Source: an uncultured Candidatus Saccharibacteria bacterium (GTDB taxonomy: Bacteria > Patescibacteriota > Saccharimonadia > CAILAD01 > BJGX01). From it: 64,000 nucleotides of DNA. The DNA is taken from NCBI GenBank assembly GCA_964610335.1, contig CAZSVP010000001.1:151057-215056 (forward strand). Direction: 5' to 3'. The notes below the pieces were generated by a model, which worked only from the letters and a program-made list of their open reading frames with translations, was not told the DNA's origin and did no database searches. Positions 28,521-59,200 of this stretch are shown here, in pieces (the stretch's first letter is position 1; every line of letters begins with the position of its first letter). Both the position numbers and the translations under genes were made by a program.

Positions 28521-29015
28521 TTACATGTATGCTAGTAATACCATTACAGCCATTACAGCCATAGTAATGTCTTCACCGAGCGTAACGTAGCTCATAGGTA
28601 TCTTAAACACGGTGCCTAGACAAGCACACATCTTGATGTGTGGGTCTCGAGCACCATGCCAGGCACCAATACTATTGATAATCATCAAACAAAGCGTGAT
28701 CCAAGCGACAGGCACTATATCGAACCGGAATAGGAATGCTAGGCCAAGTGAAACTTCTATAAATGGGTATATGTATGCGTAGATATTGCTATGAGCTGCC
28801 ACTACGTCGTACATGCGATAGGCTTCGACGAATTTTGGTAGTTTAAGTGCCTTAAAGGTACCAAAGATTATAAAGAATCCTGCCATAAAGTCTAGCATGG
28901 CTTCGGTGAAGTCCAGACTGCCCCGAGCAAACATACGGTAGCCTACGAATAGCAGTATAAACAGTAGTATTGCTATCAATGGCTCGTAGTTTTTTAGTCG
29001 TCTGCGAAATGTCAT
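28521..29015 (-). CDS. DoxX/MauE-like small polytopic membrane protein
   Basis: Four TM helices, 164 aa; family assignment from general resemblance only. Confidence 0.4.
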   Translation of the reverse strand: MTFRRRLKNYEPLIAILLFILLFVGYRMFARGSLDFTEAMLDFMAGFFIIFGTFKALKLPKFVEAYRMYDVVAAHSNIYAYIYPFIEVSLGLAFLFRFDIVPVAWITLCLMIINSIGAWHGARDPHIKMCACLGTVFKIPMSYVTLGEDITMAVMAVMVLLAYM

Positions 29016-29136: not shown

Positions 29137-29739
29137 TCAGCTGGCCAGCGCGAAGCCCGGGAGGCTGCGCTTACCCTGGAGGGTCTCGCGCACTACCTGG
29201 GCGATCAGTGGGCGCTCGGCCTGCTTGATGCGTTCATGAAGCGTTTCCTCGGTGTCACCTGTCAACACTGGCACACGCTGCTGGGCGATGATCGGGCCAT
29301 CGTCGAGCTTGGCGGTAGCCACGTGGATGGTGCAACCGGTCTCGGCTACCCCAGCTTCCAAGGCATCACGCACAGCATTGTCGCCCTTGAAGTCTGGCAG
29401 CAAAGCAGGATGGTTGTTGGTGATGCGGCCAGCGAACTTCTCGAAGATGCTTGGGCTTAGCACAGTCATGAATCCCACCATCGTGACGAAGTCGATGCCG
29501 TGTGCTTCCAGGATCTCTTCGATGCAACCGGTGTACAGCATACGATCGAAGTCGCTGCCGAAGCTGGTGCGTTCCAGGAGTACATAGTGGATGTTGTATT
29601 TGTCAGCTAGCTCGGCTGCCCGACATCCTTGTACGCGATCGGTCAATACCAGGTGTGGCCGTAGACCTTCGTCGAGCATGTGCTCCAGCAGCGTACAGCT
29701 TCCAGACACCATGGCGCACCAGCGCAGTGAAGTGTTCAT
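29137..29739 (-). CDS. purN: Phosphoribosylglycinamide formyltransferase PurN (high-GC island 1)
   Basis: NNHPALLP and GVAETGCTIHVATAKLDDGPII motifs; 200 aa; codon third positions strongly G/C. Confidence 0.8.
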   Translation of the reverse strand: MNTSLRWCAMVSGSCTLLEHMLDEGLRPHLVLTDRVQGCRAAELADKYNIHYVLLERTSFGSDFDRMLYTGCIEEILEAHGIDFVTMVGFMTVLSPSIFEKFAGRITNNHPALLPDFKGDNAVRDALEAGVAETGCTIHVATAKLDDGPIIAQQRVPVLTGDTEETLHERIKQAERPLIAQVVRETLQGKRSLPGFALAS

Positions 29740-29907
29740 GATTTGCCCCTCTTTGGGTTGTCGATGATCGGAACTGCAGCAATACTATCATAATTGACCA
29801 GATAGCACCAGATAAGCGATAATAAGCCGCAGCGAGGGCGGCGCAGCATTGTGCTGCCCTCTTCGTTTCGTTGACAATTCTCTATATTTGGAAGAAAGGA
29901 AGCTACT

Positions 29908-32900
29908 ATGCTTCGTTACTACCGACGTATGCAAACATTCGAGCCAATGTACGGCCGGATGGCTCGCGCCGTGGCCGAGCTGATGGATCCAGAAACAAGC
30001 TTTAGTGCCGAATGGTGCTATCACCTCGAGGGGCGCGGTGAACTAAGTGAGCCTGAGGTAAGTCGACTTACCTACTTGCTCAGCGAGACGTTTGATCCCG
30101 AGGGCTTCAGCTCAGTAACTTGGCTAACCAACAGCTCAGGTGCGTTGGAGCTTGGCCCCCGGCCGAACTTCGAGACGGCGGCCAGCTCGACCAGTCTCAA
30201 CGTGCTTCGCAAGATCGGCATCGATGGTTTCACTCGCGTGGAGCGCAGTTGGCGGATCGGTTTGAGTGAGTTGCCAGAGCCACTTGGCTTGGCCATGTTG
30301 GCCGAAGAGCTGCACGATCGCATGACCGAGATGGTCTACGACGATCCACCACTCAGCTTCCAGCTCGATAGCAGGCCAGAGCCAACCTTTACCATTGCCA
30401 TGATGGAGCATGGCCTGGACGCTCTGTTGCGGTTCAACAGCCAACGCGAGCTGGGCTTCGACAGCGAAGACTGCGAATGGCTGATGTGGCTGTTTGTGGA
30501 TCACATGGGACGCAACCCCACCAACGTAGAGCTCAACATGCTGGCTCAGGCCATGAGTGACCATAGTCGGCACACCATCTGGCGAGCCATCTTGGTACGC
30601 GGTGGCGAGCAGCTCGATTACACCTTGTGGGAGCTGATCCAGCGACCACTACAACGCCATCGCGGTAACGTGTTGGTTGGCTTTGCCGACGACAGCTCAG
30701 CTATCGCTGGCTACGAAGTTGACGTATTGATGTGTGAGTCCCAAGCCGGACCAGCGCAGCTGTACGTTGCTCGTAGGGCACGAGCCATCATTTGCACTGG
30801 CGAGACCCACAACCACCCCAGCGGTGTAGAGCCCTACCAAGGCGCCTACACAGGTGGTACGGGCATGCTGCGTGATGTGTTCTCGATGGGACAAGGCAGC
30901 TTCTTGGGCACCGTCGGATCCGGCTATGCTGTCGGAAGGCTGGCCCTGCCTGGACTTGGCTGGACTCATGTACCCGGTCCGTGGATCGAGCAGACCAAGT
31001 TGCTGGTCGAGGCCAGCAATGGCCTCAGTGACGGCATGAACTGTCAGGGCGTACCAGTCACTGGGGGCTGGGTACAAAGTTACAGCCACACTGAGCCTTC
31101 GGGCCAACATGTGGGCTGGGAGTGCAAACCAATCGTGCATGCTCAGGGCACCGGCACCATCGACATGGACATGCTCCATGGCGAAAAGCCCCAACCCGGG
31201 CAGTGCATGGTGCTACTAGGTGGACCAAACTACCGCATCGGCATGGGAGGCGCCAGTGCTAGCAGTGTGCCTTCGGGTGAGAACACTGCCCAGGCCGACT
31301 TCGACTCGGTGCAGCGCGGTGATGCCGAGATGCAACAGCGCGTCTATCGAGTTGTGAAGGCGCTGGTCGAGGTAGGTATACGGCGTGGTAACAGTGTCAT
31401 CAAGCTGGTCCACGATCTGGGGGCTGGTGGTAACTGCAACGCCATCCCCGAGGCTGCCGAAGGCGCAGGAGCGCGGGTTTGGGCTGATCGGTTTGCGATT
31501 GCCGATCCGACGCTCAGCGACGAGGAGCTGTTTGCCAACGAGTCACAAGAACGTGAAGTAATTGTGATTGAATCGGCTGATTGGCCATTGGTGCAGCAAA
31601 TCGCCCAGCGCGAGAACTGTCCAGCTCAGAATGTAGGCGACATCACCGGCGACGGCAGGATCCAACTGGTGGGTCGAGACGGCGAGCTGGCAGTCGATAT
31701 GGTGCTCGACGACTTCTTGGGTCGCAAGATGCAGAAGCGGCGTGAGTTTGAGCCTTGGGTGCCTCAGTTGCGGCCATTGCAGCTACCCTATGTTGAGATC
31801 TCTGACATGCTGGAACGGGTGCTTCAACTACCGTCGGTGGCCTCGAAACGCTACCTCACCAGCAAGGCTGATCGCAGTGTCGGTGGCTTGGTGGCACAGC
31901 AGCAGTGTGTGGGGCCTTGGCAACTCACATTGGCCGACTTCAGCCTCGAAGCTCACGGCTTCTTTGGCGACACTGGCACAGCACGTGCCTTTGGCGAGGC
32001 CGCCATTGTGTGCTTGGTCGATCCCGAAGAGGCTGCACGCCTATCAGTGTGTGAAGCAGTGATGAACCTCATGGGTGTGCGCCTCAGCGACGTGCTGGAA
32101 GCGAGTTTGCAGGTCAACTGGATGTGGGCGGCGCGAGCTGACATGGATCGCTATCAGCGGGCCGTGAAGGCTCTCAGCGATTACTGTTGTGAGCTTGAAC
32201 TGCCCACCGAAGTCGGTCATGGCCTAGCGCCAGATGGTGGCAAGGACAGCAACAGCTTGCAGCGCACCATGGCCGATGGCAGTGTGGTGGTGGCGCCAGG
32301 ACAAGCGGTAACCACCGCCTATGGCCCGGTGCCAAACGTTGCCAAGAAGGTCACGCCCGACATCAAGGCCCGACAGCGGGGCTTTACCGGTTCCAAGATG
32401 GTCTGGGTGAGATTCAGCAACTGGAGTCCAGCACTCGGCGGATCGGCATTGGCACAGGCCTACGATCAGTTGGGCGACGAGGCTCCCAAAGCTGCCCCGC
32501 CCCAAGAGCTGCTCCGGCTTAAGCGTGTGATTGATGGCTGGATCGACCAAGGCTACATCTTGGCGCTCCACGACGTTGGTCAAGGAGGCCTCGTCACTGC
32601 GGTGGCGGAGATGGCGTCCGGCGGCGGCTGCGGCGTACTGCTCGACTTCCAGCTCAACGGCTATTCGGCGGAAGGGTTGTTGTTTGGCGAGTCACCAGGG
32701 CTGCTACTGGAAGTTCCAGATAGCAAGCTGTATACGTTCTTGACGAGCTTGCGAGAGCAAGGACTATTGGCAGATGCAATTGGTCGCACACATCCTGACT
32801 GGCATACCAACAAAGGGCTGCAAATCAAGTGTGATGGCCGCGTTGTACTCCAACAGCCGCTTGTGCGGTTGCTGGAGTGGTGGGAGCAGACCAGCTATGT

Positions 32901-33813
32901 GATCGATCGCGTGCAGTCCAATCCTTTCACGGCCGACCGTGAGTACACCAACTTCAGCCTCGATCACTTGCCGCGTTGGCAACTTACCTATCAACCACGG
33001 GCTACCAGCCCAGGTGCGCTGCTCAGCCCGGCCAAGCCGAAGCTCGGCGTGATCCGTGAAGAAGGCAGCAATGGTGACGAAGAGCTCAAGGCAGCCTGGA
33101 TGCTGGCCGGCTTCGAGGTGAACGACATCACGATGACCGATTTGGTAGAAGGCCGGGCGACCCTCCAGGGCCTAGCTGGCATCTCGCTACCAGGTGGTTT
33201 CAGCTACGGCGACGTGCACGATGCTGGCAAGGATTGGGCTTCGGTGATACGTTCCAACGCTCGAGTAGCCGACGAATTTGCGACCTATCGCGAGCGAGCT
33301 GACAACTTCATCTTTGGGCCCTGCAATGCCTGTCAATTGATGGCTTTGTTGGGCTGGCTCGACCCGCCCGGCACACCAGAGCACGAGTATACAAGGTTCG
33401 TGCACAACAGGTCGGCTCGTTTCGAGTCACGGTTTGTGACGGTTCATGTGCCTCAGAGTGCCTCCGTGTTGCTTAGTGGTATGTCTGGTTCGCGCCTCGG
33501 TGTGTGGCTATCCAGTGGCGAGGGTCAGTACCGGCCTGGTGCCGGTGGTGCACCGGCTCTTCAGTACGTGAATCCCTATGGTGATCTGCTGGCTGAGCCG
33601 GGCGACTATCCGCACAACCCCAACGGTAGCGCGGATAGCGTGGCTGGAGTGTGCGGTCGTAATGGTCAGGATCTGGCCATGATGCCCCACCCGGAGCGTA
33701 CGCCCTATCGGCTCGAGCAGTTCCCCTGGCTTCCCAGCGAGTACCGGGATCTGCCGGTCAGCCCCTGGGCGCGGCTGTTCCAGAACGGTTACGACTTCGT
33801 TCGTAACAGCTGA
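29908..33813 (+). CDS. purL: Phosphoribosylformylglycinamidine synthase, large single-chain type (lgPurL, 1301 aa) (high-GC island 1)
   Basis: PurM-like synthetase repeats plus C-terminal class-I glutaminase domain (GPCNACQ catalytic Cys, HPER). The length is typical of the proteobacterial/eukaryotic single-chain enzyme. Confidence 0.9.
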   Translation: MLRYYRRMQTFEPMYGRMARAVAELMDPETSFSAEWCYHLEGRGELSEPEVSRLTYLLSETFDPEGFSSVTWLTNSSGALELGPRPNFETAASSTSLNVLRKIGIDGFTRVERSWRIGLSELPEPLGLAMLAEELHDRMTEMVYDDPPLSFQLDSRPEPTFTIAMMEHGLDALLRFNSQRELGFDSEDCEWLMWLFVDHMGRNPTNVELNMLAQAMSDHSRHTIWRAILVRGGEQLDYTLWELIQRPLQRHRGNVLVGFADDSSAIAGYEVDVLMCESQAGPAQLYVARRARAIICTGETHNHPSGVEPYQGAYTGGTGMLRDVFSMGQGSFLGTVGSGYAVGRLALPGLGWTHVPGPWIEQTKLLVEASNGLSDGMNCQGVPVTGGWVQSYSHTEPSGQHVGWECKPIVHAQGTGTIDMDMLHGEKPQPGQCMVLLGGPNYRIGMGGASASSVPSGENTAQADFDSVQRGDAEMQQRVYRVVKALVEVGIRRGNSVIKLVHDLGAGGNCNAIPEAAEGAGARVWADRFAIADPTLSDEELFANESQEREVIVIESADWPLVQQIAQRENCPAQNVGDITGDGRIQLVGRDGELAVDMVLDDFLGRKMQKRREFEPWVPQLRPLQLPYVEISDMLERVLQLPSVASKRYLTSKADRSVGGLVAQQQCVGPWQLTLADFSLEAHGFFGDTGTARAFGEAAIVCLVDPEEAARLSVCEAVMNLMGVRLSDVLEASLQVNWMWAARADMDRYQRAVKALSDYCCELELPTEVGHGLAPDGGKDSNSLQRTMADGSVVVAPGQAVTTAYGPVPNVAKKVTPDIKARQRGFTGSKMVWVRFSNWSPALGGSALAQAYDQLGDEAPKAAPPQELLRLKRVIDGWIDQGYILALHDVGQGGLVTAVAEMASGGGCGVLLDFQLNGYSAEGLLFGESPGLLLEVPDSKLYTFLTSLREQGLLADAIGRTHPDWHTNKGLQIKCDGRVVLQQPLVRLLEWWEQTSYVIDRVQSNPFTADREYTNFSLDHLPRWQLTYQPRATSPGALLSPAKPKLGVIREEGSNGDEELKAAWMLAGFEVNDITMTDLVEGRATLQGLAGISLPGGFSYGDVHDAGKDWASVIRSNARVADEFATYRERADNFIFGPCNACQLMALLGWLDPPGTPEHEYTRFVHNRSARFESRFVTVHVPQSASVLLSGMSGSRLGVWLSSGEGQYRPGAGGAPALQYVNPYGDLLAEPGDYPHNPNGSADSVAGVCGRNGQDLAMMPHPERTPYRLEQFPWLPSEYRDLPVSPWARLFQNGYDFVRNS

Positions 33814-33834
33814 TGTAGAGAAAATAAGTCAACG

Positions 33835-33872
33835 AAGAGGCCCCTTAATTGCGAGGGGCCTCTTCCTATTTT
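33835..33872 (+). terminator. Rho-independent terminator after purL (perfect 12-bp stem GAAGAGGCCCCT/AGGGGCCTCTTC followed by a T-tract)
   Basis: Seen directly; it also marks the right edge of GC island 1. Confidence 0.7.
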
Positions 33873-34766: not shown

Positions 34767-35018
<252 letters not shown>

Positions 35019-36910: not shown

Positions 36911-37219
36911 TCACACCAGGTTTGTTCGCCCCCGCGCCTGGTAGAACTGCAGGGACAGCAGCGTGAGTCGAGCGTGATCCTCGGCCGTGGCGCTGTGAAG
37001 GTCGTCGCGCAGCCGCTCCAGCATGGACATGTCCTCTGAAGAGAAGATGTGCATGGCGAGCTTGCTGTCGTCGGCGCCGTCGAAGATGTCGGCCACTGCA
37101 TCACTGATCTGCGCCAGTTCATCAGCCGCGATCACACGGCTCGATCCTGATGATGGGTTGTCCTGGCCGTCTACCAGTCGCAGGCTGCGGCTGGGGTGAC
37201 GGTGGTTTCTTCTGGTCAT
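36911..37219 (-). CDS. Hypothetical protein (high-GC island 2)
   Basis: ORF with G/C-rich third positions; overlaps the upstream gene (operon). Confidence 0.4.
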   Translation of the reverse strand: MTRRNHRHPSRSLRLVDGQDNPSSGSSRVIAADELAQISDAVADIFDGADDSKLAMHIFSSEDMSMLERLRDDLHSATAEDHARLTLLSLQFYQARGRTNLV

Positions 37220-37728
37220 GCTTGATCCCCTTTGGGTTGGCTTCTACAGAGTTGCAGAAGGTATTGGATCTCGATGTCGCTCAGCTGCATCACGAACTTG
37301 CGCGGATCCCCTGACATTTCAGGGTATTCTTGACCAACTACTGATCGAAGATCGGGCTGGCGTTGCAACTCAGCGAGATTCCTCATCGCCTCCAGCATGC
37401 CGACTCGCAGCATGGTGGTGCTATAACCACTCAGGTTGGGCTCAGCAGGGTTGTGGCCGTAGTTCTGAGTACGATACCAGCGCCAGAGCGGATGGCTGCG
37501 TATGGCCTGTTCCAGCTCGATTCGGCTCATGTCAGCAGGTGATTTGCCATACCAGCTAGGTCTGGGTGGTCGCTTGGGGCGGGGTGGTGGTGGAACAGAC
37601 TTTGTCTGCCCTACCGGTATGCTAACCTTACGGTTGGCAACAGGGCTAGCCACTACTCTGGGCCGTCGTTTGGGCTGCTTTGGCACGATCTCACCTCCTT
37701 TGGTGAAAACAGGTTGTCGAAAGGGCAT
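37216..37728 (-). CDS. Hypothetical protein with a Pro/Arg-rich N-terminus (high-GC island 2)
   Basis: 170 aa ORF in a consistent frame; stop/start overlap with the downstream gene. Confidence 0.45.
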   Translation of the reverse strand: MPFRQPVFTKGGEIVPKQPKRRPRVVASPVANRKVSIPVGQTKSVPPPPRPKRPPRPSWYGKSPADMSRIELEQAIRSHPLWRWYRTQNYGHNPAEPNLSGYSTTMLRVGMLEAMRNLAELQRQPDLRSVVGQEYPEMSGDPRKFVMQLSDIEIQYLLQLCRSQPKGDQA

Positions 37729-37849: not shown

Positions 37850-38662
37850 TCAGGCCGGGTCGAACTCGTCGAGCAAGGCCTCGAGCATCGATGCGGTGCG
37901 GGTCAGCTCGGAGGTGCTGAGCCGATCTGCATCGCTCAGCTTGGTCTGGGCAGCCTTCTCGACCGAGTCGAAGTGCTGTCCCATGCCGTTGAGCCCCTCC
38001 TTGAGGCTGGTGAGCCTGGAAAGCTGGTTCTCCAGGGACGACTTGGCATCGCAGTGGGCCTGCTCGGCTGCGGCCTGCTCGGCAGCTGCGCGCTCAGCGG
38101 CTTGGTGCTCACGGTACCTGGCCACGATGGGCTTGGCGGTGGCAAGCACGAGGCTGAGCCGCTCGACTGCTTGGTTGCTGAACTCGGCCTGGGCAGCCTC
38201 CTCGAGCTCCTGGCGGATGATCTCGGGCAGCCTCAGTCCGTCGATGGCGAGCACGCCTCGAGCGTGCTCGCAGCTCTTGTCGTACTGCTGCATCGCTGCA
38301 GCCAGCAGCTGGTCGCGCTTGGCCTGTTCGGCTGCCTCGGCCGCTGCTTGCAGCTCGGCCTGATAGGCGTCCTCGCGGTCGAGCTCGGTCTTGTCCTCGG
38401 CACGGTAGATGCGCCCGATCAGATCGATCAGCTCGTCGCGGTCCAGATCGTCGCGCTTCACCTGGTCCCAGATGCCCTGGCGCAGGTTCTGCTTGTGCCA
38501 CTGCGAGTTGAGCACTCGCTTGCGCAAGTCCTCGAGCTCCTCGTCGGTGAGGTCTACGGCCCACACACCGACCTCGGTGATGCGGACGAAGATGAGCTCG
38601 GTCGGCTCGGCGTTGCGTCGCTTTGACTTTGACATAACTATACCTCCCCCGGGGGTAGTCAC
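37850..38662 (-). CDS. Hypothetical coiled-coil (A/E/Q-rich) protein (high-GC island 2)
   Basis: 270 aa. Of the many overlapping ORFs in this GC-rich stretch, this is the longest with coherent codon bias. Confidence 0.45.
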   Translation of the reverse strand: MTTPGGGIVMSKSKRRNAEPTELIFVRITEVGVWAVDLTDEELEDLRKRVLNSQWHKQNLRQGIWDQVKRDDLDRDELIDLIGRIYRAEDKTELDREDAYQAELQAAAEAAEQAKRDQLLAAAMQQYDKSCEHARGVLAIDGLRLPEIIRQELEEAAQAEFSNQAVERLSLVLATAKPIVARYREHQAAERAAAEQAAAEQAHCDAKSSLENQLSRLTSLKEGLNGMGQHFDSVEKAAQTKLSDADRLSTSELTRTASMLEALLDEFDPA

Positions 38663-41827: not shown

Positions 41828-42189
41828 GAGATTAAGTATATAGGATTACCAAAAAACTAATAAGAATAAGGATTTTACTCCAAGCTTTGCTTCCTGGAGC
41901 AAGCTTCTTTTGATGGACCAAAAGAAGCCAAAAGTCCTTTGGCATGGACACAATCTAGCAATGATTAGTTAGCTCTTCCTTACTATCCTGTGGAACTCGT
42001 CCTAAGAAGTCCTCAAACAGTCCTCGGATAGTAGTGTCATAGCTACCAAATCTTGCTGATTGCTTTAATGCCATTAAAGAGAAACCAATGCTGGCAATTA
42101 AGAAGTCGGAGATCAAAAAACTTCGGCCATCTGCCTTTTAGCCTTACTACTTAACTTATTGTCCTCTGCTACAAACTTTGAAACGAGTC

Positions 42190-43210
42190 AAAAACTGTAG
42201 TGAGGAGACGAAGCAAATCTCCTAGTGTGGGAGGGTGGCCATCGGTCGATGTGGCCACCCTCCCCGACAAACATCGCTGGTGGTGGAGGGCAGAACCTCC
42301 GAAGGTGCTCAGCCACAGTCTGGCTGAAAGGACTGAGCACCTCCGGGCGACGGCCGACCGGGAGGGGTCGGCTGGTGGTGAGCTGCCGAGTTTTTCGCGC
42401 GGACGCGAAGCTTTCGACAGCGTGCGGCGCCGGCTAGGCAGGTCGGAGACCCACCAAGCATCTGGCGTCGCTGACCGTCCCCGGTCTTCGCTAGGGGACG
42501 GTTGCATGCTCCCGCAAGCGGGAGAAGGTGGCCGGGGCGCGTGCTCGGCACAAAGACTCTGGTCGACCGGTCGGATATGGTTGGTTCCATGGCACCAACT
42601 TCACCTATTGGAGAGACGAGCGCTTTGCAAGGCCCCGGCAACATGGTCGGGGAATTGACCGTTTGGGTTGACGTTGTTTTGAAACGTTCCAAATGGGTTC
42701 CCCGTTGAGATTGCCGACACGCACAGGTACTCCGCCCGGACGGGTGGTGTCCCCTGCTTGCCGTGCGCCATGCGCGTGTCGGCAGAGCTGGGGTAGAGCC
42801 AGGATGAAGCATCGAAACGCAGCTTCCTGACTCTACCCTGAGAGAACAGGTTCACGCCCCGAAGGGCGGCCCCCTCTTGAGTTCCTGCGTCAAGCAGGTA
42901 CCTCCCTTTCTCCCAATGCAACCAACCTTTCCCACGCCTTCATTCCACCTCGGCATCAGTGGTTCGATGGTGACCCCAAGAACTGTCAGAATACTTTTCT
43001 ATGCTTGCCGCCGAAGCGGTCGAAGCCCTACTAGGAATTCTGAAAGTCCACGTGGCCTGTCTAGCCATTACATTAGCCGTCGGGTTCAGTCGGAGTGGTT
43101 CTCTGAAGGTTGCAACTTGCACACCGTGGCACGATCGAATCATGCCAGAAGTGCAGGCTACAACCATCAGATAGAGATTTGCTTCGTCAAGGTATCTTCT
43201 AAATCTCTCT
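42190..43210. other. GC-rich ~1 kb region with no coherent ORF, densely packed with stable hairpins (candidate large structured ncRNA or decayed foreign fragment)
   Basis: Only short, mutually overlapping ORFs with Arg/Pro-rich wrong-frame composition. Examples: a 13-bp perfect hairpin GGGAGGGTGGCCA...TGGCCACCCTCCC at ~42228-42262, and several GAAA/GCAA/CGAA-looped stems. Confidence 0.3.
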
Positions 43211-43250
43211 AGAAGTTAGTTAGAAATAATAGTCTTGCGGCCGCTGACTG

Positions 43251-47724: not shown

Positions 47725-47753
47725 TTGACAAATCACTATAAATATTCTAGAAT
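47725..47753 (+). promoter_or_regulatory. Sigma70-like promoter (TTGACA-17-TAGAAT) preceding the island-4 ORF
   Basis: Hexamers seen directly; low-GC sequence adjoining high-GC coding DNA. Confidence 0.4.
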
Positions 47754-47760
47754 TATCGCC

Positions 47761-47786
47761 AGTTTACAGCTCGAACTAGTTTGGGG
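47761..47786 (+). repeat. Left copy of a ~26-nt imperfect direct repeat (AGTTTACA-N9-TAGTTTGGG) flanking GC island 4
   Basis: Matches 48349-48374 at ~19 of 26-28 positions. Confidence 0.4.
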
Positions 47787-47829
47787 CTGTTGCAGCCCCT
47801 TGCTATTCCAACGACCGAGGAGGTCAACC

Positions 47830-48285
47830 ATGCCAGTATTGAATGTCACCGGAGCTGAGGATTGGGTGATGCGCGCCGACATCATTCGACGTGCCAACCC
47901 CAACGACTTCAAGACCAAGGAGTTCCTCAAGGCCTTGCCGGCCATGGCAGTTGCTGCTATCAACCAAGTCGATGACAGCGGGCTCGAGGTCGAGGAGGTG
48001 ATCACCGTGGTAGGTACCTTCCACCCCTGGAGTTCCAACACCCCGGACATGTGGGTGGATCTGGTGTGTGGCACCATGCCACATGCCGAGGGTGACACCA
48101 TCCCAACGTACGAGCAGCAGGAGAAGCGTCGCGATGACATCTACGCACTTCTCGATGCTTCGATCGACGAGTGGTGGGAGGGCACCGATCCACGACCGCA
48201 GATCGATGTGGAGGTGCGTCCGCTGCAGGGTTCAGGCGGCTCGCGTGACATCAAGGGCGAGCTCTTCGCCCGCTGGGGCGGGTAG
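47830..48285 (+). CDS. Hypothetical protein, high-GC (island 4), ~151 aa
   Basis: GGAGG RBS 8 nt upstream of the ATG; strong third-position G/C bias; bracketed by hairpins. Confidence 0.45.
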   Translation: MPVLNVTGAEDWVMRADIIRRANPNDFKTKEFLKALPAMAVAAINQVDDSGLEVEEVITVVGTFHPWSSNTPDMWVDLVCGTMPHAEGDTIPTYEQQEKRRDDIYALLDASIDEWWEGTDPRPQIDVEVRPLQGSGGSRDIKGELFARWGG

Positions 48286-48376: not shown

Positions 48377-49090
48377 TTAGAACAAGTCTTTGGTGTACTC
48401 GACTGTGCGCTCGACAAACATTTCCTCGGAGCTGACTATATCGATCTCGATATCGAAGCTGGTAAATATCTTCGGTTGGCTTAAGGCTTGCTGACGTGAC
48501 ATCCAAGCATTGCGACCGCCCTCAAACTCTTCGATCAATCTGCCGGCCAGGTTGGTACAGTGAATCACAAAAAATATCTTATCCTCTAGCTGATCGCCGG
48601 TTTCCTGCTGATACACCAGCTCGTGGTACACACCAGCTATTCGGTGGTCAGCAGTTAGTCCGGTTTCTTCCATCAGCTCACGCTCGGCGGCTTGTACAAT
48701 CGTCTCGCCCCAGCGGATCTTGCCGGTGGCAAAGCCCCAGAAGCCAAAGTAAGGCTGTTTTAGCCGTTCCTGAAATAGGTACTCTGTCTTTCCATCGCTA
48801 TTTTGGCGCTCAATGGCCAAGATTACCGCTACCTTGGGTTGGCGCTCAATAGTGTTGTTGTCGGTATCAAGCTTGTTGGCGTGTTCCTTGCCCTTGGGTG
48901 TAAGAGTGTAGCTTCCGCGAGCGACCTTCTCAACCAAGCCCAACTCTACCAATTTGCTGATGTGAAAGTTGAAGTGATCGGAGCTCAGTCCTGTCCCCTT
49001 CTGCAATTTGGCAAAGTTGGCATGTGGGTGAAAAAGTAGCTCGCGCAATATCGAAGTCTGGGCATCGTGAATTTTTACTTCATGGCTCAT
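48377..49090 (-). CDS. Winged-helix DNA-binding domain fused to a NUDIX hydrolase domain
   Basis: N-terminal wHTH (LSSDHFNFHISKLVELGLVEK); Nudix box GKIRWGETIVQAAERELMEETGL. Confidence 0.7.
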   Translation of the reverse strand: MSHEVKIHDAQTSILRELLFHPHANFAKLQKGTGLSSDHFNFHISKLVELGLVEKVARGSYTLTPKGKEHANKLDTDNNTIERQPKVAVILAIERQNSDGKTEYLFQERLKQPYFGFWGFATGKIRWGETIVQAAERELMEETGLTADHRIAGVYHELVYQQETGDQLEDKIFFVIHCTNLAGRLIEEFEGGRNAWMSRQQALSQPKIFTSFDIEIDIVSSEEMFVERTVEYTKDLF

Positions 49091-49289: not shown

Positions 49290-50183
49290 TCAGTTGACCT
49301 GACGCCCCTCGAGTCCATTGATGAACGCCACCTGCGCATCATGTCCGCCGTTCTCGCCGGTGGCCCTGAGGCCAGCAGCGATGTAGACGAGCATGTGACG
49401 CGCCGAACGCTCGGTCTCGCTCTTGGGCGGCCCGAAAATTGCGTCCATGGTGTCGATCGAGGCCACTCGTGGCATGGCAGGCACGATGGCCTGACCGGCC
49501 TTGAGCTTGCCAACCATCTCGTTGTAGAGCTGGTCGACGTTCTGACCGAACGCGGGATACTTGGTGCTCAGAAGCTTGGACTGCTCCTGGTACACCTCGA
49601 TCTCGCGCTCAGCACTGGCCTGCACCGACTTGCCATCCCAGCCCGGGCGTGCCGACTGCTCGGCATGTCGCAGCTCGTGGAGCAGCACCAGCCCGGCCCA
49701 GGTGGGCGTGAACTGCTGGTTGTCGGCTACCAGGACGCTCATCAGGTTGCCGTTGAATTCGGCAATCCGTCCGTTGGCGCCGATCACATCGGCGAACGAG
49801 TTGCCGTTCTGGGCATCCTCGGTCAGAAGTGGCATGAAGTCGAACTTGCGCTCACCCGTGGGTTCACGCAAGTTCGCGAAGCCGTCGTGCGTGGGTGCGC
49901 CGATGCGACCGTGCTCGCGAGCGAAGTTGACCACCATGGTCAACTCCATCGAGCCGAGGCTGCTGGCCGTGTCGTCGGCGTTCTTGAGCCAGGCATCGGC
50001 CAGTGCGAGATGACGCTGCTTGGCATCGTCACTCACCTTGGTGATCGGGATGGTGCCCTGGCCGTACTTCGTATAACCGTAGGTCGGCTCGGTCGGTGCC
50101 GACTGGCTGGACGGAGAGCTGCTGCAGCCCGCCAAGAAGGCGAGCAACAGAATCAGCCCAAGGAACTTGCGGGGGGACTTCAT
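49290..50183 (-). CDS. Putative lipoprotein zinc metallopeptidase (HEXXH), high-GC island 5
   Basis: Signal peptide with lipobox LLAFLAGC; HELRHAEQ motif; start set at MKSPRKF. Confidence 0.5.
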   Translation of the reverse strand: MKSPRKFLGLILLLAFLAGCSSSPSSQSAPTEPTYGYTKYGQGTIPITKVSDDAKQRHLALADAWLKNADDTASSLGSMELTMVVNFAREHGRIGAPTHDGFANLREPTGERKFDFMPLLTEDAQNGNSFADVIGANGRIAEFNGNLMSVLVADNQQFTPTWAGLVLLHELRHAEQSARPGWDGKSVQASAEREIEVYQEQSKLLSTKYPAFGQNVDQLYNEMVGKLKAGQAIVPAMPRVASIDTMDAIFGPPKSETERSARHMLVYIAAGLRATGENGGHDAQVAFINGLEGRQVN

Positions 50184-50330
50184 GGGTGACCTCCAGGTCG
50201 ATGTTGTCGGGGAGCGCAATCACCACGGTGATGAAAGCTGAACTATACTACCACAAAAGTACATAAATGTCAATACTTACAACAGGTTAAACCTATTGTT
50301 TTGTATCTGATAAGCTATATAATTGATCTG

Positions 50331-51371: not shown

Positions 51372-51439
51372 TTATTACGGATCGAGACCCGGAAGCTGGT
51401 AGCCACCGGGCCTCGAAGTTCGTCCGCTCAACCTAGGAG

Positions 51440-52561
51440 TCAGCGCACCTGCAGCGTGTCGGCCGTGAAGGTGATGTCGAGTGGCCGGATCTCAACCTGC
51501 TTGGCGTCGTGAGCTTCGACCTTGCCGGCGATGTGACACTCGAAGCCGGCTCGCTTGATGATGGTCTCAGCGCGCCAAGCCTCGGAGCGCTTCACGATCA
51601 GCGCGTAGCCGGCACCTTGGTTGTAGTCGCCGTACATGTTGTACAGGCTGATGCCTGCTTCCTTGCGGATGTACTCGAACACCTCGAGCTGAGGCGGCAG
51701 AATATCGATCGCGTAGTTGAACGGCTGCTCGGTGTTGGCACGCATGATCTTGCGCCAACCGTGTCCGGTGATGTTGGCAATGTAGTGGATCTCCACCCGC
51801 TCCTCCAGCAACCGTCGCACAGCACTTGCATAGATCGGTGTGGGCTGCAACAACGCGTCGACGAACCGTTCGCCGCTGGGCATGGTGGCCTTGAGACCCA
51901 CCAGCGGCAGCAGATCGCGGATCAGGGTGATGCCATTGCTGTGCACACCTGAGCTGTGGATCAGGATGATCAAGTCGTCATCTTGGATGTTGCCGTGGAT
52001 CACTCGACTCTTCGGCTTGACGATGCCCATGGCCGAGCCACCGAGTACGGCGGAGCCAGGCATCACCACATCACGCAAGGTCGATGACTCACCACCACCC
52101 CACACGCCGCCAGCGGCCTTGCAGGCCTCAGCCCAGCCGGCAAACAAGCCTCTGGTGCGGGCTTCGCGCTCGAACCAGCTGCCATGGCCGGCAGCAACGT
52201 GCAGGGCTCCGGACAGCAGTCTGGCACCGAGAGTGGCCATGTCGTTGAAGATCATGGCGGCGTTGGTCTGGCCGATCGAGTGCCAGAACAGTTGCTCTTG
52301 TTCCGGCGAGAGCGAGGCCAGGTAGCGAGCGACCTCCTCCGGAATGCGGTTGAGCGTACCCAACCCTTCCTCGACATGTGCCAGGTAGTGGTCGGGTGCC
52401 TCGAGCAGGAAGGCGCTCTCACCGCGCGACCAGTCGGCCACACGGTACTGGGTGTCGGCGATGGCTTCGTCGGTACCGGCCGCATACAGCTGGGCCAGCA
52501 CCTTGAATGGATCCATTGTGGCATAGCTCACGACATCGGCGTACTTCGGTGAATCAGTCAT
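51440..52561 (-). CDS. purM: Phosphoribosylformylglycinamidine cyclo-ligase PurM (AIR synthetase), high-GC island 6
   Basis: DDDLIILIHSSGVHSNGITLIRDLL, ITGHGWRKI and YNQGAGYALIV blocks align with E. coli PurM ([46 protein letters not shown]). Confidence 0.75.
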   Translation of the reverse strand: MTDSPKYADVVSYATMDPFKVLAQLYAAGTDEAIADTQYRVADWSRGESAFLLEAPDHYLAHVEEGLGTLNRIPEEVARYLASLSPEQEQLFWHSIGQTNAAMIFNDMATLGARLLSGALHVAAGHGSWFEREARTRGLFAGWAEACKAAGGVWGGGESSTLRDVVMPGSAVLGGSAMGIVKPKSRVIHGNIQDDDLIILIHSSGVHSNGITLIRDLLPLVGLKATMPSGERFVDALLQPTPIYASAVRRLLEERVEIHYIANITGHGWRKIMRANTEQPFNYAIDILPPQLEVFEYIRKEAGISLYNMYGDYNQGAGYALIVKRSEAWRAETIIKRAGFECHIAGKVEAHDAKQVEIRPLDITFTADTLQVR

Positions 52562-52669
52562 GGGTTTCCCCTATTCGGTTGTCGGGACGAACTTCTTAAT
52601 GCCTCGAATTGTTTCGAAGCAGAACAGGATGATTATAACCCAATGGCTACAATCAACTAAGCATAAATG

Positions 52670-57790: not shown

Positions 57791-57883
57791 GGAGAGGTAC
57801 CCAAGAGGCTGAAGGGGCTGGATTGCTAATCCGGTAGGGGGGAGCAATCCCCCGCGAGGGTTCGAATCCCTCCCTCTCCGCCA
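57791..57883 (+). tRNA. tRNA-Ser (anticodon GCT), long variable arm
   Basis: GGAGAGG...anticodon loop TTGCTAA...GGTTCGAATCC...CCA. Confidence 0.85.
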
Positions 57884-59123: not shown

Positions 59124-59200
59124 GTACCCGTAGCTCAGTTGGATAGAGCGTTGGCTTGCGGAGCCAAAGGTCGGGGGTTCGAATCCCTTCGGGTACACCA
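59124..59200 (+). tRNA. tRNA-Arg (anticodon GCG by my hand fold)
   Basis: 77 nt, perfect 7-bp acceptor stem GTACCCG/CGGGTAC, D-loop AGTTGGATA, T-loop TTCGAAT, CCA end. Confidence 0.75.

Follow-up and report, generated by a model that had tools for sequence, protein, structure and literature searches.

Probable old acquisitions of mixed origin: purN, purL and purM in GC-rich patches of a Saccharibacteria chromosome

Saccharibacteria are the best-studied epibionts belonging to the candidate phyla radiation (CPR, Patescibacteria), and the usual description is that they cannot make nucleotides. A lineage in which purine genes persist stands for a mode of life that is less dependent. One such case is Candidatus Lutisaccharimonas (class Saccharimonadia, family UBA4665), all genomes of which are reported in a 2026 preprint to have near-complete synthesis of inosine monophosphate (IMP; bioRxiv 10.64898/2026.09.16.751625). 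Soil lineages of Saccharibacteria are known to have a horizontally acquired cytochrome bo3 oxidase cluster (PMC6031116). Saccharimonadia that make purines are already known, as is the transfer of genes between Saccharibacteria and Actinomycetota. Here we describe three purine genes, purN, purL and purM, in a 64-kb stretch of an uncultured Candidatus Saccharibacteria bacterium (the window, W), which makes up ~15% of one contig of 420,536 bp. What this locus adds is a three-way mixed origin, conserved leaders, and long-lived GC-rich patches the size of single genes. We consider it likely, with a probability of roughly 0.6, that the three genes were acquired long ago from mixed sources, are still in use and form part of an ordinary IMP pathway. 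The contigs and assembly pieces used for comparison are labelled L001-L021, and related proteins carry P numbers (P0122, P0419, P0423). The three genes are as follows.

29137..29739, minus strand: purN, glycinamide ribonucleotide (GAR) formyltransferase, step 3 of the pathway, 200 amino acids (aa); GC content 0.59, GC content at third codon positions (GC3) 0.71; TIGR00639 and Pfam Formyl_trans_N
29908..33813, plus strand: purL, single-chain formylglycinamidine ribonucleotide (FGAM) synthase, step 4, 1301 aa; GC content 0.59, GC3 0.67; NF003672 and six Pfam domains
51440..52561, minus strand: purM, aminoimidazole ribonucleotide (AIR) synthetase, step 5, 373 aa, CPR-type; GC content 0.62, GC3 0.79; TIGR00878, AIRS and AIRS_C

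The identities that an earlier note on this DNA had proposed for the three genes are borne out by family and domain matches. PurN scores 141.9 bits on TIGR00639, narrowly under the equivalog cut-off of 150.1, with the PurU, Fmt and ArnA models far lower, and 112.8 bits on Pfam Formyl_trans_N (PF00551); it aligns over its full length with the best solved structure, M. tuberculosis PurN (3da8). Its catalytic triad, Asn108, His110 and Asp146, is invariant among relatives (alignment A4), and at its N-terminal loop of the SGxGS/T type, which binds the phosphate of GAR, the sequence is SGSCT in W, P0419 and P0423, SGAGS in L002, and SGSGT in the actinobacterial relatives. PurL is indeed the large single-chain form, with 974.6 bits on NF003672 (cut-off 783) and 1023 bits on TIGR01735 (under the cut-off of 1123), and its Pfam domains, which span residues 35-1298, are FGAR-AT_N, the linker, AIRS, AIRS_C (twice), PurM_N-like and GATase_5. 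Among solved structures it scores 573 bits to Salmonella 1t3t and 795 bits to 9n9w, a chain of 1369 residues that we take to be a eukaryote-type PurL. The Cys of the glutaminase triad (in GPCNACQ) and the His and Glu (in MMPHPER) align with the 1t3t-type and 9n9w chains, and the triad is invariant in alignment A1. Both triads singled out in the earlier note as worth verifying, Cys/His/Glu of PurL and Asn-His-Asp of PurN, are thus intact. PurM scores 129.3 bits on TIGR00878 (E = 1.8e-37), its sole NCBIfam match and well under the cut-off of 236.35, and only ~89 bits against the E. coli structure 1cli; it has the Pfam domains AIRS (PF00586) and AIRS_C (PF02769), and every PDB match is a PurM. 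PurN and PurM miss the curated cut-offs because their sequences are divergent, as is the whole family of CPR-type PurM.

The affinities of the three proteins differ. PurN has its own clade at 73-87% identity, followed by best matches at 54-58%, and every named protein among the latter is from the Acidimicrobiia (Actinomycetota), namely Rhabdothermincola sediminis, a Rhabdothermincola sp., an Acidimicrobiales metagenome-assembled genome (MAG) and an “Actinobacteria bacterium”. The purN of Rhabdothermincola has a GC3 of 0.93 and lies within a purN-purH operon. A 53%-identical PurN is encoded in a contig of 33% GC with a fully native GC3 of 0.19, so the PurN family has no intrinsic demand for GC.

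PurL has relatives with identical gene order at 91% and 57-59% identity, while all others are at or below 42% and are spread across many phyla. A neighbour-joining tree of 29 sequences sets the window clade apart on a long branch of its own, close to a Patescibacteria PurL and to a cluster labelled “Streptosporangiaceae MAG”. No donor of PurL can be named, and no relative above 42% lies outside the small clade. The nearest outside PurL (42%) is in L020, a contig of 69% GC, and the members of its cluster are labelled as Streptosporangiaceae MAGs. Positions 3128-14124 of L020 hold a compact operon, purD-purK-purM-(purE)-purL-purN-purC-purF, with a single-chain PurL and a 367-aa PurM that is 40-42% identical to the CPR-type PurM. 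Actinobacteria usually carry the split PurL/Q/S, and the single-chain PurL of L020 is thus unexpected. The suggestion that the form of PurL points away from a Gram-positive donor is unsafe, because the nearest outside PurL falls in a cluster with a Gram-positive label and PurN is nearest to Actinomycetota.

PurM has relatives at 66% and 52% identity, followed by a flat plateau at 44-48%, and all named proteins of the plateau are from CPR bacteria (Saccharibacteria, Saccharimonadales, Azambacteria, Taylorbacteria and Paceibacterota), with which the window PurM has distinctive motifs in common. DX4GAXP is the nucleotide-binding signature of the PurM superfamily. At this site the window protein has NDMATLGARL, in which Asp, Gly and Ala are kept and Leu stands where the signature has Pro, as it also does in P0122; the other CPR PurM proteins have GALP or GIRP. 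Three proteins with three affinities (PurN Acidimicrobiia, PurM CPR-wide, PurL isolated) lend support to piecemeal acquisition, which was among the readings offered in the earlier note.

Both loci have kept their places on the chromosome. The native genes that border purN and purL are as follows.

28521..29015, minus strand: native left border gene, a MauE-like membrane protein (Pfam MauE), GC3 0.45; adjoins purN in W, L002, L005 and L009
33885..34688, minus strand: native gene on the right border, encoding 267 aa without a family match, GC3 0.46; adjoins purL in W, L002, L005 and L009

L002, L005 and L009 all retain the arrangement MauE-purN-purL-258aa, L013 retains ValRS..purM-TsaD..FemAB, and the pur open reading frames (ORFs) are full-length in every relative. 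At fourfold degenerate sites the divergence of purN and purL together is equal to that of their native neighbours, with values of 0.47 against 0.55 for W-L002, and 1.34 against 1.41 for W-L009, so the two genes have been inherited with the chromosome since before the L002 and L009 splits. These are deep divergences; native fourfold sites are near saturation (F81 d = 1.41 for W-L009 and 1.46 for W-L013), and identity at fourfold sites between W and L009 is ~39%. The ratio of nonsynonymous to synonymous divergence (dN/dS) is 0.26 for PurN and 0.09 for PurL (both W vs L002) and 0.30 for PurM (W vs L013), compared with 0.004-0.17 for native genes. The three genes are under purifying selection, which is somewhat relaxed.

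The DNA that would control their expression is conserved over the same distances, and contains the following elements.

29740..29907: divergent purN/purL control region, 168 bp, 47% GC; most columns invariant across W, L002, L005 and L009, and almost invariant between W and L005/L009
29756-29763, minus strand: CGACAACC box, ~20 nt ahead of the purN start
29794-29823, plus strand: promoter-like TTGACC-18-GATAAT, overlapped by tandem ACCAGATA boxes at 29797-29804 and 29807-14 (consensus scan)
29834-29861, plus strand: hairpin with a T-run in the purN/purL spacer
33834..33865, plus strand: terminator-like hairpin after purL, with a stem of 13 pairs and a T-run behind it; the convergent 267-aa gene shares it
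52562..52669, minus strand: predicted purM promoter and 5' leader, with a TTATAAT -10 element, a short hairpin, a CGACAACC box at 52577-52584 and a GGGG ribosome-binding site

The ribosome-binding site of purL is AAGGAAG, and over the 110 nt upstream of purM the identity of W and L013 is ~95%. Conservation of this DNA while native fourfold sites are near saturation argues for regulated expression, which these regions probably direct. An Rfam search of the pur leaders for a riboswitch or another known RNA gave only chance hits at E <= 1, and a motif search found no ACCAGATA boxes upstream of purM. The CGACAACC motif occurs five times in the window, compared with 1.5 expected. Three copies are on the coding strand, where they precede the start codons of purN, of purM and of the GC-rich hyp170/hyp102 operon (37712-37719, minus strand) by 20-30 nt, and the remaining two are inside GC-rich ORFs. 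Four lineages have the motif unchanged upstream of purN, but one base is different in L013 (purM) and one in L002 (hyp170). From its placement CGACAACC might, tentatively, be a control element that these genes have in common. The purM ORF is bracketed by an imperfect inverted repeat of 19 nt (16/19 positions) at 51415-51433, 7 nt past the stop, and 52577-52595, 16 nt ahead of the start; ~9-10 nt of complementarity are kept in L013, and the repeat could reflect either mRNA-end pairing or the remnant of a gene cassette.

The composition of the three genes sets them apart from a background of 45% GC and from neighbours whose GC3 values are nearly all 0.40-0.50. GC rises and falls at the ends of the pur ORFs. 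The codon shift is global, with G/C-ending codons used for every amino acid, and extends to the proteins, in which Lys, Ile and Asn are down and Arg and Gly are up. This is the kind of shift expected of genes that evolved in a high-GC genome. The foreign-looking composition described in the earlier note is therefore seen in all three genes, but for purM it does not equal foreign origin, since the closest named relatives are all CPR.

We modelled neutral decay of GC at fourfold sites (GC4) toward the native composition, a model in which among-site rate variation could only speed the decay. For purN and purL the present GC4 of ~0.63 would go back to ~0.98 (range 0.89-1.11) at the W-L009 node, which is just compatible with an Acidimicrobiia-like donor (GC3 0.93). 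Polarised fourfold changes in purN and purL, counted between W and L002 with L009 as the outgroup, number 58 GC>AT and 30 AT>GC, where, with the saturation of the outgroup modelled, ongoing decay expects 59.5:28.5 and equilibrium 51.4:36.6, giving a likelihood ratio of only ~2.7 for decay; the raw excess of GC>AT is largely a product of the saturated, GC-rich outgroup. In our reading of the model, an old transfer with partial decay explains purN and purL, and simple decay fails for purM, the GC-richness of which ought to be gone by now.

As the earlier note had it, there are no other pur genes in the window. None was found in Pfam scans of ~55 ORFs, and tblastn of PurD, PurK, PurE, PurC, PurF, PurH, GuaA and FolD against the six frames of the window gave nothing below E = 0.3 (PurB was searched by Pfam scans only). 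In other CPR contigs purM or purN is likewise solitary (purM in other Saccharibacteria). Three enzymes long kept under selection must be supplied with GAR and must have an outlet for AIR, and the indirect evidence favours a complete pathway, most likely with the other genes elsewhere in the genome.

From the direct results (identity, intactness, selection, gene order, composition and affinities) we infer the direction and timing of transfer, the regulation and the remaining pathway, and propose the following course of events. The three genes would have entered the lineage separately, in time and in source, before the sampled relatives diverged. The source of purN would be an Acidimicrobiia-like high-GC actinobacterium, that of purL an unsampled lineage with the single-chain form, and purM would be of a type that circulates within CPR bacteria. 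All three would then have been inherited vertically at fixed positions, evolving faster than core genes under purifying selection, and their GC-rich codon and amino-acid usage would be mostly a slowly fading mark of origin. They would be working enzymes, converting GAR to formylglycinamide ribonucleotide (FGAR), FGAR to FGAM and FGAM to AIR, each with its own conserved promoter or leader, and would serve the ordinary ten-step IMP pathway, the other genes of which would be scattered in the genome.

Several points weigh against this proposal. For purN and purL the modelled decay would work only if the transfer fell near the deepest observed node (W-L009). For purM the decay model needs an ancestral GC4 of 1.15 at the native divergence of 1.46 (W-L013), and even with purM's own divergence of 0.83 (range 0.60-1.29) the ancestral GC4 is still 0.92-1.0, which is implausible for a CPR-type gene. 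The closest possible PurN donor is only 58% identical, and candidate donors of PurL come no closer than 42%. The lone purL of an unrelated Patescibacteria contig (L010) is also ~0.2 above its flanks in GC3, which may signal a recurring cause rather than chance transfers. Altered activity is possible for two of the enzymes: the PurM of W and P0122 is changed at three positions otherwise invariant in CPR (GLGTK to GLGTL, GAxP to GARL, and GGET to GGES), and SGSCT replaces SGSGT in PurN. Finally, the three are the only pur genes of this genome seen in the 64 kb covered, so that a complete pathway is a supposition, and published descriptions have most Saccharibacteria without de novo synthesis of nucleotides (PMC6031116, PMC12592800).

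The strongest alternative concerns composition rather than function. The GC-richness of the three genes might be a maintained, gene-specific steady state, upheld by codon selection, by GC-biased conversion in accessory genes that are often exchanged or by repeated replacement from a GC-rich pool, any of which would hold these and the other GC-rich ORFs apart from the core genome; we regard this as unlikely overall, though readily conceivable. GC3 is stable across lineages (0.66-0.74 for purN and purL in four; 0.77-0.79 for purM in two) though native fourfold sites are near saturation, the neutral model makes its impossible demand for purM, and purM, while CPR-type, is GC3-rich in every Saccharibacteria contig examined (0.79 in W, 0.77 in L013, 0.72 in L015 and 0.69 in L017). 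The synonymous divergence of purM and of the ORFs hyp186, hyp270 and hyp102 is below native (0.83, 0.84 and 0.18 vs 1.46 and 0.55), as expected under either synonymous constraint or recent exchange, and L010 has the same +0.2 offset in GC3 for purL. On the other hand, the polarised counts lean to a net loss of GC in purN and purL, the high-GC actinobacterial affinity of purN accounts for its composition without any special force, and its relative with a GC3 of 0.19 is fully native. GroEL is highly expressed and yet has a GC3 of only 0.52, so that expression-linked codon selection is unlikely, and the effects of GC-biased conversion reported in bacteria amount to a few percent, not 25-40 points. 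The L010 gene (9992-13876, in a MAG contig of ~38% GC) is a single-chain purL with a GC3 of 0.50 between genes of 0.26-0.39, and no second pur gene was found within 10 kb of it.

A bolder picture, which we find rather doubtful, is that two compositional classes of genes have been kept long-term, with the GC-rich patches, namely the pur genes, a gene like that of the Major Vault Protein, an isochorismatase and several ORFs of no known family, held at a codon usage of their own by selection, biased conversion or re-supply from a pool, and with some of them perhaps forming one CGACAACC regulon; in its boldest variant, steps 3-5 would operate alone on host intermediates.

That last idea can also be taken separately, as a stand-alone module in which purN, purL and purM are the only pur genes of the organism and turn host-derived GAR or FGAR into AIR, for hand-back to the host or, for example, for the pyrimidine branch of thiamine. 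Steps 3-5 are the only ones within the 64 kb, the pathway is reported missing from most Saccharibacteria, and long purifying selection shows that the three genes are useful. Some cyanophages have auxiliary sets of this kind, for example purN, purL and purM, so a partial set can pay where the partner provides the remaining steps. We nevertheless judge the module improbable. To our knowledge, no import or other transport of phosphorylated purine intermediates has been described, absence from a window of this share of one contig says little, and pur genes are singly dispersed in related genomes. In addition, the closest outside PurL lies within a complete pur operon, and a genus of Saccharimonadia with near-complete IMP synthesis exists, according to the preprint.

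Non-functional cargo, that is, recently acquired and decaying genes, was another reading in the earlier note, and it does not hold up. It might draw on the scores of PurN and PurM under the NCBIfam equivalog cut-offs, on their protein divergence, which is faster than that of core genes, and on the motif changes in purM and purN, but we consider it very improbable. The catalytic residues remain in place, all relatives have full-length ORFs, dN/dS is 0.09-0.30, the arrangement of the genes and their promoter/leader DNA are preserved over divergences at which neutral sites are saturated, and the genes were already present before W parted from L009 and from L013. An assembly or binning artefact, in which high-GC DNA of another organism was joined to a CPR contig, has virtually no chance despite the sharp GC steps at the gene ends, because the same junctions between GC-rich and native DNA are found again in independent assemblies, several other samples and diverged relatives (L001, L002/L003/L004, L005-L008, L009, L012 and L013), which rules out a chimera, and the spacers and flanks are native-like and conserved.

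The surroundings of the pur genes are those of a reduced genome, as had been supposed. The window contains YidC, Jag and MnmE, then DnaA, DnaN and RecF, along with a VirB4/PrgI type IV secretion cluster and several T4SS_pilin genes; also present are ComF, Hsp20, three FemAB genes, GroEL, PGI, PGM, TsaD, ValRS and several NUDIX genes. Its gene order is matched in L009, a contig of an uncultured Candidatus Saccharibacteria MAG (CAZWVB01), in which the secretion genes are followed by ComF-Hsp20-MauE-purN-purL-258aa. Given this match and the gene content, the window is part of a Saccharibacteria (CPR) chromosome close to dnaA and the replication origin, and the pilins and the full gene-order match bear out the description of the host as a reduced organism. 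Marks of mobility were looked for at the island borders; there was no integrase or transposase nearby, there were no flanking direct repeats, and there was no tRNA target, which leaves the imperfect inverted repeat around purM as the sole feature at a border. The nearest tRNA gene on the purL side is separated from it by a native gene.

34767-34856: tRNA-Ser, after the 267-aa border gene and ~950 bp past purL

Counting this one there are three tRNA-Ser genes in the window, the others being at 57791 and 57940. Bacterial tRNA-Arg usually has the anticodon ACG; the tRNA-Arg at 59124-59200 (plus strand) has GCG. The NUDIX hydrolase genes include 48377-49090 and 62224-62982 in the window, 90-590 in L011 and 11576-11995 in L002, among which one is fused to a winged-helix domain and one is NUDT9-like; their multiplicity recalls T. 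rhizospherense, a Saccharibacterium of soil for which many NUDIX genes are reported.

The pur genes belong to a larger mosaic, in which at least seven more ORFs of GC3 0.70-0.86 lie among native genes between 36.9 and 63.8 kb (36911-37219, 37850-38662, 47725-48285, 49290-50219, 59503-62129 and 63096-63770). Family matches were obtained only for an isochorismatase (63096-63770) and for a protein like the Major Vault Protein (MVP). The latter (60312-62129, plus strand) is a 605-aa protein with MVP shoulder and Vault_3 repeat domains and a weak SPFH/Band_7 match, and its start is overlapped by a 276-aa ORF with no family match (59503-60333, plus strand); these two are the GC-richest DNA of the window (65% GC, GC3 0.84-0.86). 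We considered whether the other GC-rich ORFs might be divergent pur genes and rejected the idea, since they have no Pfam match, their translations are basic, Pro-rich or coiled-coil and not enzyme-like, and tblastn was negative. The ORFs hyp270 (37850-38662, minus strand; coiled-coil, GC3 0.84) and hyp102 (36911-37219, minus strand) have synonymous divergences to L002 of only 0.17 and 0.31, compared with 0.6-0.8 for native genes, and so would have been exchanged or acquired after the lineages split. A further stretch of 1.4 kb (41828-43250) has no convincing ORF, with GC at all three codon positions of ~0.63. Its core of ~610 nt (42630-43240) is ~99% identical to L002 (8 substitutions and two 1-nt indels), whereas the flanking genes are ~62% identical at fourfold sites; there is a second block at ~42162-42227, and the stretch folds well on both strands (z about -4.5). 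It has no Rfam match even at E <= 1, no tRNA and no tmRNA, and a 23-mer taken from it is absent from JGI metagenome and viral contigs. We consider it a candidate either for a structured RNA of large size or for an element that was exchanged very recently.

The pur locus offers a dated example of how a metabolic capacity may be assembled gene by gene, here from the phylum of the actinobacterial hosts, the CPR pool and an unsampled source. The stable GC-rich patches, above all that of purM, put to the test the assumption that an odd composition means a recent transfer, and if that assumption fails here, then composition-based calls of transfer in CPR genomes need care.

Compared with known systems, the locus is island-like in composition and, for purN, also in phylogeny, without the marks of mobility at its borders. 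The proteins have the same domain architectures and catalytic residues as canonical PurN, PurL and PurM of E. coli and Salmonella, but are distant from them in sequence, and the genes are dispersed, GC-rich relative to their genome, and provided with leaders of their own. The purN-purH operon of Rhabdothermincola sediminis (L021) encodes the closest named relative of the window PurN (54% identity), although in the window purN is divergent from a single-chain purL, with no purH after it. Cyanomyoviruses carry purN, purL, purM and others as auxiliary genes, and have in common with the window a partial, middle-step set in a small, host-dependent genome; the window genes, however, are chromosomal, lie in stable order beside core genes near dnaA, and have no phage genes adjoining. 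Acquired metabolic add-ons of other Saccharibacteria follow the same two-class pattern, as seen in L017, where COX, UbiA, RNR and purM have GC3 values of 0.64-0.75 next to regulatory neighbours of 0.51-0.57, but there the additions are multi-gene clusters, and in the window the islands comprise one or two genes with native-looking spacers. For Candidatus Lutisaccharimonas, the accessible text of the preprint describes neither GC-rich single-gene islands nor a mixed origin of the pur genes. It is a member of the same CPR class as the organism of the window, an otherwise reduced epibiont with pur genes and an actinobacterial partner, and there is evidence of its gene transfer with Actinomycetota.

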